Source: Candidatus Aenigmatarchaeota archaeon (lineage in GTDB: Archaea > Aenigmatarchaeota > Aenigmatarchaeia > Aenigmatarchaeales > JACQIB01). Taken from it: a stretch of DNA of 64,000 nt. Below are positions 27,001-33,000 of this stretch, in pieces. Each line of letters begins with the position of its first letter. Positions within the stretch are counted from its first letter, which is position 1. The stretch is taken from the NCBI GenBank assembly GCA_043799675.1, contig JAZDNN010000024.1, forward strand, positions 32,412-96,411, given 5' to 3'. Made by a program: the position numbers.

Positions 27001-30000
27001 CCCCGCGCCTGAAAATCCTGTATAGAATTGGATTAAAGCCCTGTTCCCTTAGTTGCCGTTTTATCCTACCAAGCAAGGTTTTATTTTCGGTGCCTATCCG
27101 CATACAACACTGCAAATTTTCCCTGATTTTCTTGACCAGAAGCGACCCTTCCGCATCGAAGTAGCCGGCCAGGAACGACAGGAAAACATTCCGTTCGGAT
27201 TCGACCAACTCTGAAATCAATCGTTTCCTGTTTTCCAGCAAGAGGAAGTCGAAGCTGTTGTCGAGGTCTGCGGATGTCGTCCACATGTAATTTCCAAAAG
27301 TTCTGTTCTTCGCAGGATATGTCCTTACCTTCGCATATCCTTTGAACAGGCTCTCGAAGACATCCAGGAATCCTTCATGAGTCGTGTTGGTTATGGCCCG
27401 AATGGTATGCTTCGATCTTCTGAAGGCTGTCACATCACCCTCCACGAAACCAACCATGTAAGCCTTTTCTTCATCCTTTCCATCAAAACTTTGCCGTTCA
27501 TGTTTCCTGTTTGTCAGCAGGATAGCCTCATCGTTTCCACGCACCCGAAAGCCGTTTTCTTCCAGCACCTTATGCAACGTGCCTTTGGAAGAACCAAATT
27601 TCTTGGCCAGCTTTTTCAACGATATTTTCTCCGTGTCATAAAGTCTCAGAATTTCCGTCACAGGCAGGTGTTTCCTGTGAGACAACGAATGTGCCTGACT
27701 GAGATTCCTTATCGGTATGTCAAGTTTGATGAACCGTTTTCTTACGGCCGACCACGATATATCGTCTCCGAGCTTAACACTCAATATCGCCGCCACTTCT
27801 TTGAACGTCTTACCGGACGAATAGAGACTCTCGGCTTCCTTCAGGAGTTCGCTGTTCAGCTTCATGGTCGTCTATTATATCCCGTTAGGCACTATAAATT
27901 GATATATATTCTCGAGCACACTAATCATGCAGAATACATCCAAAAATATTATTATACCTTCCAGCGAGCGCATTTCTCAACCTGAACGTGTCGCCCTGCG
28001 CCGCATAGGCCATCCAGCCCTCAAGGCTTTTCGCAGCCTGTTCTGCCGAAATCTCACCGGATTCGTACTGCAGTCTGAGTGCCGTCATCCTTTTTTCGAG
28101 CTTCAGCAGGTTCCTCCTTTTTGGAATCCTGTAGTGGTAGAACACCCTGAAGCCGAGCAACGATATCCCCTTATGCAAAGGGTAGACCTGCGATTTTTCC
28201 TCATGCAACTCTAGCTTTAACCGTTGTTTGAGGAACCCGTTTATCCCGCTCCTGAACTGCATCAGCGCGGCCTCAGACCTGTCCAGAATCACGAAGTCAT
28301 CTACATACCGGAGATAGAACCTTGCCTTAAGCACGTGCTTCACGAAATGGTCCAGCTCATTCAGGTAGACGTTCGCGAAGAACTGGCTCGTCTGATTGCC
28401 TATCGGCATCCCCTTCGGCAGGGCAGGGTCGTTGTTCGACAGGATTTTCCGTACCAGCCAGAGCACGCTTTCGTCCCTTATTTTTCTCCGTATGATGCCA
28501 ATCAGGACATCGTGGTCGACGCTCGGGAAATAGTGCCTTATGTCGGCCTTCAGTGCATAGCCGACCACCATGTTGTTGTCCTTCGCGCCGTGCACCAAAC
28601 GGCCGTTCCCGGAAACCTTTCGCTTGAAGCAATCAAACCTGTCCAATGCTGCCAGGCCGCCCTTTCCCTTCCTGTTGGCGTAGCTGTCGTGGATGAACGT
28701 TTTGTCGAAAATCGGTTCGAGCACGTTGCATAACGCATGATGGACAACACGGTCCCTGAAATGCGAGGCATGAATTACCCGTGTCTTGGGGTCGCGGATG
28801 ATGAACCGTTTCAACGGGCGCGGCGAATACGTACGATTTTCAAGCTCAGTTTTCAAATCTGCCAATTCGCCATCAAGATTAGCTTCGAATCTTTTGACAT
28901 ACCATTTCTTCGACTTGCCCTTCCTCGCCTTTCTGAATGCCAGCAAAAGGTTCTCTGGCGAGCAGACCTTTCCGTAAAGGTTGTCAAATGTTTTCAAAAA
29001 TATCCCCTATCGGCGGCCCGTGCTATTGGCGCAGACCCCGTTGTCATTCAGGCTTCCCGCCAAAAGGCAATGAGGAAGTTTCCTGTTCGAGGGCCTGTTC
29101 GCATTTATGCCGGCGGAACGTTTCCTTCCAACCGTTCGCATTGAAGCACCCTTGACGGCCCGAAGGCTCTCGTCCGTGTTCCAATCCGACCTGACGGAAG
29201 GGTTTCGGTAGCCTCTCCACCGACATGACACCGCGGCTTCAATCTTCGGGAACCTACCAACTGAAACCGCTGAATTTAATGGCACAAGCATTCGGACGGC
29301 ATGAAATGCCATCGCACCATCTTGCGCTCTATGGAAAGGCGTATAGCGCGGGCCTTTGCCGGGAGAATGAAATACCCGCCCCCCGATTGGGAAGGAAAGA
29401 ACTCTGTCATGCAAAAATTGAGGGACGAAACGATTTATGCGCCTATTTTGAGGTCTTAACCGCTTTTTTTGCGGCGCAGACCCCGAGGTCATGCCTGAGC
29501 GAGGGCCCGCCCGCATCCGCATCGAAGCACCCCCCGTCGGAGTGCCAAGTCGACCTGACGGAAGCCACTTCAACCGGGATTAAGGCTTCTGTTTCGATTT
29601 CTACTATATCCAGTTTGTTGTCTTTCATCCTGTAAGAAGCCGCTTTCTGTTTGGCCAGCTTTTGGATGACCTCAAGATTATGATTCCAGTAATCGTCCAT
29701 CGTTGCCTTGTATTCCTTGTCGGAATTCATCAGTTCAGCCGACTCCTGTGCCTTGAAGTGTCTTACTCCAAAGTCCAGCTTGAACTCCTCGGGTATTCTC
29801 TGATAGACCAGTTCCTGGATTATCCTGTCCGCATTGGCGATGAACCCTTTGCGTTTATAGTCCCTGAACTTTCCTGCGTCCCCTTTGGCCATCAGGAGCG
29901 CATAGCCTTTCTTTTCAAGGTCCTTTTCCAGCCTCTTTCCGTCAATTATGGCCAATATTTCATCGACCTCTCCCAACCTTTCTTTTACAGAAAAATCATC

Positions 30001-33000
30001 ATCAAATATTACAGAGCCATTGTAAGCGGCCAGCTTCGAATCATACGCGCCTGCTGCACGCAGATAATCGAGAACACAGCCTTCAACAGTTACAGGCACG
30101 GCTTTTCCCGTGAACCTGAATTCCCCGTCGATAATCCTCACTTCAGGCTCGGGCATCACGACCGTTGTTATTTTGCTCATGATAATCATTCTTCAGAAGT
30201 GCTTCTTCACGACTTCGAGGTCTTTCATCAAAGCGTCATATTTCTTTGACTTTTCCAGAAGCTCCCGGTATTCGCTCTCCGCGACCTCGCACATCTTCGG
30301 AAGCTCGGCCTTCTCGTCCGTTTTAAGGAGGGCGCAGACCCCGTCGTCAGCCCAGTGCGAGGGCCTGCCCGCAGTCGCATTGAAGCACCCCTCGCCCGTG
30401 GTCCAAGCCGACCTGACGGAAGCTTCACCGTTTTCAAACGAGATGCTTCCCCTCCAGACCTTCTTTTTCGGTTTCTTGAACAGCCCGGCATTCACGAGTG
30501 TATCAAAGACGTCCGATTTGCTTATCCCGGCCCTTGTTCTTTTGCCGTCATATTTGAGTTCACCGTTCACTTCCTTCACGACGGGGTCGGCTATTATCTC
30601 GCCCTTCTCAAGGGCGACTTCCCTGTTGTGCAACCAATAATCAATATTCATTTTCTTGAACGACTTGTCCTCGTGCACCAAATCGTAAGAAACCTGCAAC
30701 GGCAGGAGCGTGTAGCGCTCGCCGACCTTCTTTGATACTTCCTGACCGAGAAGCGTCATCTGCCTGTGGTCGAGGTTCGCCACGAGGCCATTGCCTTTGT
30801 AGTCGTTGTGCCCTTCGGCAGGACTTCCCTTCCATTTCGGGAAATACACCGTTTCCTTGCCCGTGGGCGGCACTATCTTTCCCGCTATCTCATGGACGAT
30901 TTCGGCCTGTGTTACCATGAGGACAATACCACCGCAAAGGATTTAAGCGGAAGACTGAACGTAAACGGCTTGAACTACTCAATCGCCGCATTCGTCCAAA
31001 GCCGCTTTCCTAAAATCCAACGATTTAGGAGGGTCCTTCAGAAACTGTTGATATTCGCTCTCCGCAATCTTGCGCACCTTCGGCTTCTCAACGGCCTTGC
31101 CCGTTTTCACGAAGGCGACAACCCCGCGGTCAGGCCCGGAGGAGGGCCAAGACGCACCCACAGCGAAGCACCCAAAACGGTTTCCCGACTTGACGGAAGA
31201 AATGCCGTCATTCTCGTAAATGATGCCCCAATCACAGACGTTGTGATTGAGCTGCTTGAACAGTTTTGCGCTGGCAAGCGTCTTTATCACGGACTCTGCG
31301 TCAATGTTCGCCTTTACGCTCCTGCAACCATCATTGAGCCTGAGCTCGCCGTCGACTTCGCTGACAATCGGGACGGAAATAACATCCCCGTTTCTCCGTA
31401 TGACTTCCCTGTTGATTATCTTATAATCGGCCATCATTTTCTTGAAACTTCTGTCATTATGCACCAAATCATAACTCGTCTGAAACGGAAGTTCGGCATA
31501 ACGCTCGCCCACTTTCTCGGATATCATCTGACCCAAGAACACGGACTGCCACTTATCGAGAGTCGCAACAAAACCCTTACCGTAACGATCGTTGCGTCCT
31601 TCTATCGGACTTCCCTTCCACTTCGGAAAATACGCCGTTTCCTTGCCGGTAGGCATCCTAATCTTGTCCAAAATTTCATAGACGATTTCAGCTTCACCCA
31701 TTATAACTAACTAGTGGTGATAGTATTTAAGGTTTCTTTTTGGGCTGGTTTATAAACCTCGGAGCAGAAAGTGGCACATGCCAATCTCGGGAGCACCGTA
31801 CACGCGGCAATGGGAGCACCACAAGGGGCGGGGACACGAATCCTCGGTCACATGCGGCTACTGCGGAAGGCTTGTGCCTCGGTACAAGACGTTCACCAAG
31901 TTCAGGGGCTTCAGAATCACCGATCCCACGATACTTCAGGCGGTGGACAGGCAGTTCATCCACACCTTCAGCCAGAAGATATACGTCTGCCCGAGCTGCG
32001 CGCGGTCCCACAAGATAGTGCAGAGAGGCAAAACGAAGCAGAAAAGCCACATGTTCAGATAGGATTAAAAAGAACGGTTTCTATATACTGGAGCAGATAG
32101 ATATGAAAGTCATCGAAATACAACCGACGACCATGGCGGAGGCCAAGGAGATAGTGCTCGCGAAGGAGAAGGACAAGGAGCTGGGCTACGAGCAGAAGCT
32201 CGCGGCGGAGCACCTGAAGAAGTTCACCAAGCTGAAGCGCGAGGATGCCAAGAAGTTCATGAACGAGCTGACTTCCGTGCTGAAGGCCTCGCCCGAGACG
32301 CTGGTGACCATAGCGAACGTCCTCCCGCAAACCACCGATGAGGTACGGCTGATTTTTGCCAGAGAGAAGTTCAGCGTGAAGGAAGACGAGATTTCCAAGA
32401 TACTGGAGATAGTCAAGAAGTTTGTTTGAGGGTTTTCTGTGGAAAGAGACGAATGGGCCGTAGTTCTAGACTTCCTACCTAAGGGAAAAGCATCCGGCAA
32501 GCCTGAGCCATTGGCACAAGTGCTCGGTACCTTCCGATTCGGCCTGCTGGAAGTGGTGGTAAGGGAAGGGGTCATACTCAAGCCGGGCGAGAGGCTGTAC
32601 ATCGGGGAACAGGAAAGGAAGGAAGTGGACCACATCAAGCGGAGGATAGCCTCCAACGAGCTGACCTCCTTTGCCCGCAATGACCTGCCGTTCGCGGTGG
32701 AAAAGATAGTCAGGGCGGAAGAGGCGAGGTTCGTGGACTTCTTCAACAAGGCCACTTCCATCTCCGTCAGGACCCATCAGCTCGAGCTGCTTCCGGGAGT
32801 CGGAAAGAAGCACATGTGGGACATAATCAACGAGAGGAAGAAGGGGCCGTTCAAGAGCTGGGACGACATCAAGAGCAGGATAAGCCTGCTGCCGGATCCT
32901 GCCAAGCTCATAGTCCAGAGGATTCTCAAGGAGATAGACAACGACGACGAACGGTTCAGGATATTCGTGGTCGGGCCGCCGAGGCCCGAGGACAGATGGG

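Follow-up and report, generated by a model that had tools for sequence, protein, structure and literature searches.

How can a template repeat that is not colinear with its variable repeats serve as their template? This question is raised by a diversity-generating retroelement (DGR) of Candidatus Aenigmatarchaeota archaeon (GCA_043799675.1, contig JAZDNN010000024.1), whose template repeat (TR) contains three insertions (17, 31 and 33 nt) absent from the variable repeats (VRs). We analyzed a window of 64,000 nt, the stretch from 32,412 to 96,411 on the forward strand of the contig; all coordinates are window positions, window position 1 being contig position 32,412 (Table 1).

Table 1. Features of the DGR and its neighborhood in the window.
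Feature	Position	Strand	Basis or remark
rtcB	25385..26723	+	only copy found in the assembly; N-terminal limit provisional
BHB insertion within rtcB, 31 nt	25457-25487	+	HWG-YGFPIGG frame restored by removal
LAGLIDADG/HTH ORF	26630..27865	-	between rtcB and the RT gene
DGR RT gene	27921..28997	-	ORF, 358 aa, TTG start
TR-to-RT-start spacer, 30 nt	28998..29027	-	sequence; alignment with relatives
TR	29028..29200	-	173 nt of DNA; 92 nt without the three insertions
TR exons	29169-29200 (32 nt), 29136-29151 (16 nt), 29080-29104 (25 nt), 29028-29046 (19 nt)	-	
TR intron 1, site A, 17 nt	29152..29168	-	BHB geometry
TR intron 2, site B, 31 nt	29105..29135	-	BHB geometry
TR intron 3, site C, 33 nt	29047..29079	-	BHB geometry
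RT-16 RNA motif (Rfam RF03019)	29203..29379	-	57.2 bits, full model, E = 3.3e-7
Target gene g00501	29443..30189	-	248 aa; VR 29473-29564
Target gene g00502	30193..30918	-	241 aa; VR 30331-30422
Target paralog g00503	30979..31701	-	240 aa; decayed VR ~31114-31199

The locus is best explained as a working DGR of a DPANN archaeon, judging from its sequence. The reverse transcriptase (RT) matches Pfam RVT_1 (3.1e-16) and contains the motif IGNQTSQ, which we take to be a hallmark of DGR RTs. Its top NCBIfam match is a group II intron RT, below the cut-off of that model, and no DGR-specific NCBIfam model matched it. This RT of DGR type adjoins the repeats, the VRs lie inside protein-coding targets (in the C-terminal third of g00501 and g00502), and the TR/VR differences fall at TR adenines, the last only once the three insertions are removed. 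We collected 52 RT relatives from genomes and 80 each from metagenomes and viruses, many of which carry adenine-type TR/VR pairs (23 archaeal, 21 bacterial and 68 viral loci). The RT-16 motif, scoring above the gathering score of 50, sits directly 5′ of the TR and is presumed to be the 5′ part of the DGR RNA; homologous regions were found in the loci labeled L001, L002, L003, L015 and L017. The 30-nt spacer between TR and RT start is kept across L001, L002, L003 and L015. Apart from ORFs overlapping RT-16 and the TR, the ORF listing contained no separate ORF between target and RT.

Without its insertions, the 92-nt TR aligns ungapped to both the g00502 and the g00501 VR. All 11 mismatches to the g00502 VR fall at TR adenines, as do 14 of the 16 mismatches to the g00501 VR, the other two lying elsewhere. 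The VR of g00503, whose protein is 51% identical to that of g00502, is degenerate and contains indels. The g00502 protein had no sequence match in Pfam, NCBIfam or the PDB. BLAST of the spliced TR against all 45 contigs of the assembly (749 kb, 83% complete) returned two full-length copies, namely the two VRs, and the four TR exon pieces; an uninterrupted TR was not found there. The unspliced TR yielded only fragments of at most 32 nt. The junctions are identical in both VRs, and likewise in the two VRs of L007. Up to this point, our results reproduce what the initial annotation had reported: the position of the TR, its three insertions and 92-nt product, the ungapped VR matches with their adenine bias and the degenerate third VR, the lack of another TR copy, the RT-16 RNA and the RT with IGNQTSQ.

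All three insertions show the geometry of the archaeal bulge-helix-bulge (BHB) motif. In each case four exon bases pair with four intron bases to form a central helix, followed by a 3-nt bulge on each strand; the distal helix measures 4-6 bp. Intron 1, which admits a single boundary, has the central helix GACG/CGTC (4/4), bulges AGA and AAG, and a distal helix of 4 bp with a tetraloop. Intron 2 has ATGC/GCAT (4/4), bulges GAA and AAA, a distal helix of 4 bp and a proximal helix of 2 bp, and intron 3 has CAGG/CCTG (4/4), bulges AAA and AAT and a distal helix of 6 bp. Cutting after the second base of the bulge on both strands reproduces the VR-colinear junction in all three. The cuts thereby take away a single strand of the central helix, the signature of a BHB and not of a hairpin deletion. 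The BHB is the local MFE structure for introns 2 and 3 (z = -2.0 for the latter); intron 1 has a different local MFE structure, and the TR as a whole shows no unusual stability (z = -0.76). The intron-intron helix (h′) measures 4-6 bp in the window, and the exon-exon proximal helix (h) abutting the bulge measures 0, 2 and 0 bp, site C being one of those with none; there, the whole-TR MFE structure has a 3-bp helix two bases off. Since most sites have a weak proximal helix or none (0-2 bp), many of these motifs are formally relaxed BHBs and not strict hBHBh′ structures. Relaxed forms require an EndA of broad specificity, according to passages of PMC5829648.

A spliced-alignment scan over 26 archaeal genome entries (the window included) and 80 metagenome loci added 17 loci with interrupted TRs, 7 in DPANN genomes and 10 on metagenome contigs. 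The 18 loci contain 38 proposed insertions, of which 27 pass a strict BHB test, against about 0.26 expected; the others comprise 6 near-canonical cases and 5 artefacts or indels. The genome set accounts for 21 proposed insertions (18 strict, 1 with 3/4 central pairs, 2 artefacts) and the metagenome set for 17 (9 strict, 3 with 3/4 central pairs, 3 artefacts or indels, one with 4/4 pairs and a 1-bp distal helix, and one canonical BHB 2 nt off the alignment cut). Central pairing is complete (4/4, G-U allowed) in 28 of the 33 credible insertions, 27 of them with a distal helix of at least 2 bp. The six non-strict cases comprise four with 3/4 central pairs, the one with the 1-bp distal helix, and L097, where 4/4 pairs occur only 2 nt from the alignment cut and the canonical cut would imply one non-adenine mismatch. 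For the 19 rows retained from the genome set, 0.15 strict passes were predicted by random placement and 0.09 by local shuffling; for the full 17 metagenome rows, random placement predicted 0.11. Where boundaries were ambiguous, the register with the best BHB was chosen, and the controls were given an equal number of registers. Offset registers gave 5 passes at (+1,-1) and 1 at (0,-3), versus 18 at (0,0). The insertions occupy about four sites across loci that, the relatives being kin, are not independent events; these sites are shared by loci whose RTs have diverged to 52-82% identity.

Interrupted TRs showed the same adenine bias under an aligner that was lenient on mismatches at A. Mismatches at TR adenines numbered 12/12 in L001, 14/14 in L002, 8/8 in L003, 18/19 in L004, 14/14 and 17/18 in L007, 11/11 in L015 and 6/6 in L047 of the genome set. 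In the metagenome set the counts were 13/13 in L057, 12/12 in L058, 24/24 in L060, 12/12 in L068, 12/12 in L073, 6/7 in L075, 15/16 in L076, 18/18 in L081, 10/11 in L083 and 18/18 in L097. Apart from the few exceptions in these counts, interrupted TRs differ from their VRs at adenines only and therefore appear to be working templates. The RT frame is free of stops in most of these loci; L007 has one stop in the RT range, L015 has a frameshift at a poly-G run, and in L047 and L097 the contig ends within the RT.

The helices between exon and intron covary. At site C, 95.0% of the cells across the 18 loci pair, compared with 69.0% in shuffles, and the covariation score is 0.717 versus 0.237; none of 500 shuffles reached either value. 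Slid controls were 27-46% paired, and both sides had changed in seven of eight pairs. This covariation argues for selection on the RNA fold. Among loci with a TR/VR pair, 8 of 23 from archaeal genomes had an interrupted TR, against none of 21 bacterial (Fisher p = 0.004) and none of 68 viral DGR loci. A rough NJ tree built from 107 RTs places those with interrupted TRs in one archaeal subclade plus two neighbours. The structural claims of the initial annotation also stand. BHBs in all three window insertions were found again, with canonical cuts at its coordinates, and its count of 13 of 14 insertions in five other DPANN genomes corresponds to L001, L002, L003, L015 and L004, the exception being the third insertion of L015 with 3/4 central pairs. 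Its chance expectation of 0.05 is of the same order as our 0.15 (placement) and 0.09 (shuffle), and the compensatory helix changes that it described are borne out at site C.

The genome encodes both a splicing endonuclease and an RNA ligase. Two tandem EndA-unit genes lie on contig C10 (84.5 and 56.6 bits), and the single rtcB gene (524 bits) is located near the DGR. Fifteen of 16 Rfam tRNA matches span 85-161 nt and are therefore intron-bearing. The neighboring rtcB gene carries a 31-nt BHB intron of its own, and rtcB orthologs without this insertion exist. The pair of rtcB and LAGLIDADG genes also adjoins the DGR in L003.

Taken together, we consider it likely, at a probability of roughly 0.85, that mutagenic reverse transcription is preceded by splicing of the TR RNA through EndA and RtcB; the TR would then be best explained as a split gene for an RNA. 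A single transcript would contain the RT-16 motif, the TR with its three mini-introns and the RT message in this order. Each intron would fold into a BHB together with the exon bases immediately upstream, the tRNA-splicing endonuclease EndA would cut each 3-nt bulge between its second and third bases, and RtcB would ligate the four exons into the 92-nt template. The DGR RT would copy this spliced RNA, misincorporating opposite adenines, and the cDNA would replace the VRs of g00501 and g00502, g00503 having decayed. The initial annotation had already proposed BHB splicing of the TR, and each prediction of this reading that was testable at the level of sequence agreed with our data.

Might the RT itself jump over the three structured insertions on unspliced TR RNA, with no splicing enzymes involved? 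Each insertion forms a stem with its two ends close together, and template switching is known from RTs related to those of group II introns. However, an RT that jumps a hairpin should lose the stem entirely or retain it entirely, whereas in the 4-bp central helix the 5′ strand invariably stays and the 3′ strand is invariably lost. Jumping is made very unlikely also by the cut register, which in 27/33 credible insertions lies at a constant 2 nt beyond the helix on either strand, and by the identical junctions in both VRs of the window and of L007, and it leaves the restriction to archaea (0/21 bacterial, 0/68 viral) unexplained. Somewhat less probable still is a scheme in which EndA cuts the BHBs but the exons stay unligated, the RT switching end-to-end between exon fragments held together by the helices. 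The BHB evidence applies equally to this scheme, and nicking of the template RNA belongs to the Bordetella mechanism as outlined in parts of PMC5703328. However, the central helix holding the exons would be gone once the intron is removed, end-to-end switching usually gains or loses bases whereas all junctions here are exact, and RtcB is present and adjacent.

The TR could also be a decaying relic, the VRs having been written by an intact ancestral TR and the insertions having arrived later in a dead element. The degenerate VR of g00503 would fit such decay. Yet the same sites are occupied in diverged loci that all show adenine-type TR/VR differences, most of them with an open RT frame, and the helices covary under apparent selection on the fold. 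Random decay would not yield a BHB 27 times where about 0.26 are expected, and we regard the relic as the least probable of these alternatives to splicing by EndA and RtcB.

If the TR RNA is spliced in this way, the introns may be a selected safety and gating device and not passengers, an idea that we hold only tentatively and consider rather doubtful. Template DNA in pieces of at most 32 nt would shield the master template from being overwritten by spliced, mutagenised cDNA; the fragmentation would likewise restrict homologous recombination between the template and the three tandem VRs, and hypermutation would become conditional on EndA/RtcB activity. In line with this, the introns are kept at the same sites down to about 52% RT identity beside an enzyme that would keep making intron-less cDNA, the ligase gene adjoins the DGR in two genomes, and that gene is itself intron-gated.

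Splicing of the TR would link two systems thought unrelated, protein hypermutation by retroelements and archaeal tRNA splicing. The survival of introns beside an RT that would constantly make spliced cDNA bears on intron loss and retention, and BHB-gated templates could serve as a design principle for controllable diversification systems. There is also a consequence for DGR finders, which seek a contiguous TR/VR match, the longest exon here being 32 nt. In ordinary BLAST, a contiguous match of at least 30 nt was absent in 17 of 26 archaeal loci, although at least 9 of these 17 lacked it only through the query window masking a nearby VR. Elements with interrupted TRs have probably been counted as orphan RTs, and archaeal DGRs may thus be undercounted.

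Compared with canonical DGRs, such as that of Bordetella phage BPP-1 and those of DPANN and CPR organisms, the locus likewise has an RT beside a TR and target VRs that differ at TR adenines. DGRs of DPANN and CPR organisms have reportedly been surveyed by Paul et al. in 2015 and 2017 and by Wu et al. in 2018. Unlike canonical DGRs, the TR DNA described here lacks colinearity with the VR, being split by one to three BHB mini-introns, no Avd gene was noticed among the ORFs, and the TR lies 30 nt from the RT start with RT-16 upstream. The transfer from TR to VR is described as one-way through RNA in sections of PMC5703328, PMC4372165 and PMC5758913; those of the last two make no mention of TR introns, and the literature searched yielded no report of an interrupted, spliced DGR TR.

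The archaeal BHB, as characterized in portions of PMC7714728, is a 4-bp helix between two 3-nt bulges, with EndA cutting inside the bulges and a ligase joining the exons. The TR introns share with those of pre-tRNAs and pre-rRNAs the 4-bp helix, the 3-nt bulges and the predicted cuts inside the bulges. Rare BHB introns outside tRNA and rRNA occur in the cbf5 pre-mRNA of Crenarchaeota and in the 5′ UTR of HVO_1309 in Haloferax; besides the latter, its own case, the same source gave by 2020 only cbf5 as an ‘additional’ BHB intron in those portions. The TR would add a new substrate class to this very short list. Unlike the hosts of pre-tRNA, pre-rRNA and cbf5 introns, the host RNA is a retroelement template and not a tRNA, rRNA or mRNA, and up to three introns with a weak proximal helix are packed into 173 nt.

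The closest experimental precedent is the td group I intron engineered into the Bordetella TR (Guo 2008; Naorem 2017), which is likewise removed as RNA, the spliced RNA serving as template in the account given in part of PMC5703328. That intron is artificial, self-splicing and bacterial, whereas those described here are natural, conserved, multiple and, on our reading, spliced by proteins; they would be a natural counterpart of the laboratory intron tagging that proved that DGRs act through RNA. A further parallel is the splicing of HAC1/XBP1 mRNA, where, as covered in part of PMC4090602, tRNA-type cutting and ligation on a non-tRNA substrate gates a cellular programme. It differs in being eukaryotic, in using IRE1 as the nuclease and either a tRNA ligase or RtcB for ligation, and in involving no reverse transcription.

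The diversity-generating retroelement (DGR) is arranged on the minus strand in the order g00503, g00502 and g00501 (three tandem target paralogs), the RT-16 motif (RF03019), the template repeat (TR), a spacer and the reverse transcriptase (RT) gene. Downstream of the RT gene lie a LAGLIDADG/HTH ORF and then a convergent rtcB (524 bits). None of the three target proteins had a match in Pfam, NCBIfam or PDB sequences, and the single-sequence AlphaFold model of g00502 was unusable (pLDDT 36.6). A weak match to the hairpin ribozyme model inside g00503 (31371-31414, minus strand; 21.7 bits versus a gathering score of 65, E = 0.85) is almost certainly due to chance.

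Features of the DGR and of the EndA gene pair (window coordinates unless a contig or locus is named)
Feature	Position	Strand	Remarks
Target gene g00503	30979-31701	-	paralog of g00502/g00501
Target gene g00502	30193-30918	-	
Target gene g00501	29443-30189	-	
Rfam RT-16 motif	29203-29379	-	177 nt; 57.2 bits vs gathering score 50
TR	29028-29200	-	30-nt spacer between TR and RT gene
Intron 1	29152-29168	-	central GACG/CGTC; distal 4 bp; proximal exon-exon 0 bp
Intron 2	29105-29135	-	central ATGC/GCAT; distal 4 bp; proximal exon-exon 2 bp
Intron 3	29047-29079	-	central CAGG/CCTG; distal 6 bp; proximal exon-exon 0 bp
RT gene	27921-28997	-	358 aa; Pfam RVT_1 3.1e-16; contains IGNQTSQ
Two tandem abutting EndA-unit genes	C10:51469-52295 (L053:1474-2552)	- (L053)	each with N-terminal and catalytic domains

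The initial annotation claimed that the TR is split by three bulge-helix-bulge (BHB) introns of 17, 31 and 33 nt, which must be spliced out before reverse transcription. When the three insertions were removed in script, the remaining 92 nt aligned without gaps to two variable repeats (VRs), as claimed. The g00502 VR differed from the spliced TR at 11 positions, all at TR adenines, and the g00501 VR at 16 positions, 14 of them at TR adenines; the TR contains 22 adenines. The g00503 VR is degenerate, and its remaining copy has indels. The unspliced TR matched the VRs only in pieces of at most 32 nt by BLAST. Searching the 45 contigs of the assembly (749 kb, 83% complete) with both the spliced and unspliced TR retrieved no uninterrupted template, in agreement with the claim that no other copy exists. 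The core of intron 3 (29055-29072, minus strand) has an 18 nt exact match in an intergenic region (C16:32269-32286), just past a stop codon and 126-143 bases ahead of position 1 of the window; by our own estimate, chance would produce about 0.003 matches of this kind, and inspection of this site revealed no convincing BHB.

A BHB consists of a 4-bp helix between two 3-base bulges and is cut inside the bulges, as described in PMC7714728. In our test, the helix consists of four exon bases and four intron bases, which stop 2 nt short of the 5′ and the 3′ junction, respectively, and must pair with each other, so that on each strand the helix is followed by the bulge and the cut falls after the second bulge base; in the strict version, the intron must in addition pair with itself in a distal helix of 2 bp or more. 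Free BHB scans were unspecific, with 441 matches in 375 control windows, and the counts were therefore restricted to insertions identified independently, through TR/VR alignment. All three insertions in the window passed, and the passing registers coincided exactly with the boundaries in the initial annotation. Only the 3′ strand of each central helix is excised while its 5′ partner remains in the exon, a one-strand loss that a simple hairpin deletion would not produce. The local minimum free energy (MFE) fold is the BHB for introns 2 and 3 and another pairing for intron 1, and the stability of the whole TR is not unusual (z = -0.76). Since the proximal exon-exon helices have 0, 2 and 0 bp, the motifs in the window are best described as relaxed rather than strict hBHBh'.

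We scanned one genome per species for relatives of the RT and obtained 52 loci, from 25 DPANN archaea, 26 bacteria (mostly CPR) and one partial entry. By plain BLAST, the bacterial loci yielded long contiguous TR/VR matches and the archaeal loci only a few of them. TR/VR pairs were then aligned with a custom local aligner in which only the TR may be gapped, and only by long gaps; its lower penalty for mismatches at A may trim the ends but cannot alter the interior of an ungapped exon. Including the window, 23 of the 26 archaeal entries had a TR/VR pair, of which 15 were uninterrupted and eight interrupted, with three insertions each in the window, L001, L002, L003 and L015, two in L004 and one each in L007 and L047. 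From 21 proposed insertions we kept 19, rejecting those of L013 (115 nt) and L024 (195 nt) as alignment artefacts with mini-exons of 9-12 nt across the RT-16 region. Eighteen of the 19 passed the strict test, and the third insertion of L015 had 3/4 central pairs. Random placement of insertions within the same loci would give only 0.15 strict passes and local shuffling 0.09, with the controls granted the same number of ambiguous registers as the real insertions. When the cut register was shifted, the 18 passes at the true register fell to at most five at any other. Mismatches between spliced TR and VR lay at TR adenines in 12/12 (L001), 14/14 (L002), 8/8 (L003), 18/19 (L004), 14/14 and 17/18 (L007), 11/11 (L015) and 6/6 cases (L047).

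Several RT genes of the relatives are frameshifted at runs of about 8-13 G (L015:2950-2980, L017:4745-4760, L036:4522-4551, L039:4534-4579) or at dinucleotide runs, (GA)n in L038:1691-1765 and (CT)n in L024:4557-4609. These runs may act as phase-variable switches or reflect errors of assembly; a BHB scan at these sites gave noise only. A G run also lies directly 5′ of RT-16 in L001-L003, and the RT range of L007 contains one stop codon.

As an independent set, 80 contigs were retrieved from metagenomes with a five-RT alignment (A2), and 12 of them contained a total of 17 proposed insertions. Nine passed the strict BHB test, whereas 0.11 passes were expected for all 17 (Poisson p ~7e-15). Three others had 3/4 central pairs with long distal helices, and one was a 13-nt mini-intron with 4/4 central pairs and with distal and proximal helices of 1 and 7 bp, respectively. 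The 42-nt insertion of L097 has a canonical BHB displaced by 2 nt in the upstream direction from the cut chosen by the aligner; adopting it would entail one non-adenine mismatch. The insertion of L061 (148 nt) and insertion 1 of L097 (17 nt) rest on mini-exons and were rejected as artefacts, and the 9-nt insertion of L088 is an AAC-repeat indel. In the four artefact rows of both sets (L013, L024, L061 and L097 insertion 1) the mini-exons span 9-15 nt, and three of the rows lie across the RT-16 region. Mismatches were at TR adenines in 13/13 (L057), 12/12 (L058), 24/24 (L060), 12/12 (L068), 12/12 (L073), 6/7 (L075), 15/16 (L076), 18/18 (L081), 10/11 (L083) and 18/18 cases (L097). Differences of this kind between spliced TR and VR indicate that the interrupted templates are in use.

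Together, the two sets comprise 33 credible insertions of 13-53 nt in 18 loci. They fall at about four sites, A (5 loci), A' (2), B (8) and C (18); introns 1, 2 and 3 of the window occupy A, B and C, respectively. All 33 have an A at the start of the intron and another at the start of the 3′ bulge. Five more contigs have site-B or site-C motifs with no VR for comparison, and the motif scan alone is unspecific. The exon strand of the central helix at site C varies (CAGG, CGAG, CTCG, TTCG, TGCG), and the intron strand changes to match. In an alignment of 18 sequences (A3) with two helices specified, 95.0% of 140 cells were paired versus 69.0% in shuffles (0/500 as high), and the covariation score was 0.717 versus 0.237 (0/500), with the structure taken from the same 18 sequences, which are kin. 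Both sides change in seven of the eight pairs, and sliding the partner by 1-3 columns reduced pairing to 27-46%.

Interrupted TRs were confined to archaea among the genome loci. The 26 bacterial loci comprised 21 single-piece TR/VR pairs, four loci without a pair and one (L052) with a generic repeat, whose two segments were rejected as a TR/VR pair on account of indels and the lack of a BHB. The difference between 8/23 archaeal and 0/21 bacterial pairs (Fisher p = 0.004) is to be read with the loci including kin and not being independent. The same RT alignment retrieved 80 viral contigs, of which 68 had single-piece pairs and 12 had no pair; none had an interrupted pair. In a rough neighbour-joining tree of 107 RTs without support values, the interrupted elements grouped in a single archaeal subclade, apart from L076 and L083, which fell close by.

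The genome encodes the enzymes for BHB splicing. Of the two EndA-unit genes, one aligns with the first half and the other with the second half of the two-unit EndA model (350 aa), and an intron-bearing tRNA-Leu gene lies ~1.6 kb from this pair. Fifteen of the 16 Rfam tRNA matches span 85-161 nt (e.g. C16:13303-13463), and thus introns are present in almost all tRNA genes that could be detected, probably more than one in some of them. The count of 16 tRNAs in an 83%-complete genome suggests that further tRNA genes are too disrupted for detection. According to PMC5829648, relaxed BHBs depend on EndAs that are of the (alpha-beta)2 or epsilon2 type or bear a loop, and DPANN lineages have EndA loops of this kind and many disrupted tRNA genes.

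The sole rtcB of the assembly (25385-26723, plus strand) is itself split by a 31-nt insertion (25457-25487) with BHB geometry, 4/4 central pairs (TGGG/CTCA) and an 11-bp distal helix; once the insertion is excised, the reading frame across the conserved HWG-YGFPIGG is restored. The ligase would therefore be required for its own message to be produced. We found rtcB in 22 of 26 genomes searched and both flanks of the insertion site in 20, of which 13 lack an insertion and seven have one of 28-33 nt. The strict test was passed in the window, G005, G006 and G023; in three genomes of one genus (G016, G021, G024) the helix is BHB-like, and the canonical cut would lose the Tyr codon. A second BHB insertion is present at the DINCG site in G005 and G006. 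At this site, rtcB of G003 and G004 is split by ~1.5 kb in a single open frame, which looks like an intein. The rtcB gene and the convergent LAGLIDADG/HTH ORF adjoin the DGR in both the window (25385-27865) and L003 (L003:361-2726; RT 62% identical), with the DGR cassette inverted relative to this pair between the two; no rtcB was found within 4 kb of the DGR in L001 and L002.

Colinearity, adenine bias, geometry, register, covariation, taxonomic restriction and the enzyme genes are established from the sequences. From them we infer every RNA step of the best-supported reading, to which we assign a probability of about 85%: the TR RNA would be cut by EndA, its exons ligated by RtcB, and the spliced RNA only then copied by the RT with adenine mutagenesis. 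Alternatively, the RT itself might skip structured inserts in the TR, but this would leave the one-strand asymmetry, the fixed register and the archaeal restriction unexplained. EndA-type cleavage could also be followed by template switching without ligation; however, the junctions are exact, and the helix holding the exons would be lost upon cleavage. The interrupted TR might instead be a dead template, against which speak the covariation and the adenine-only differences across divergent loci.

Our search of the full-text literature, with Paul et al., 2017 and supplementary files outside its scope, found no report of introns in a DGR template. The only papers that it showed to contain both 'bulge-helix-bulge' and 'DGR' were two versions of a phage group II intron study. 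Gapped TRs do not come up in the available portions of Paul et al., 2015, Wu et al., 2018 and Paul & Eren, 2022. As of 2020, the BHB introns outside tRNA and rRNA given in the accessible part of PMC7714728 were those of cbf5 mRNA only, besides that paper's own 5′UTR case. The circular omega-RNAs of IS200/IS605 were considered as a precedent for BHB-processed mobile-element RNA and dismissed, as no BHB is reported in the available text of PMC12558985. An engineered precedent is the Bordetella TR, from which an inserted self-splicing intron was removed and the spliced RNA copied, according to PMC5703328; in that system, unlike the archaeal TRs, the intron was placed artificially.
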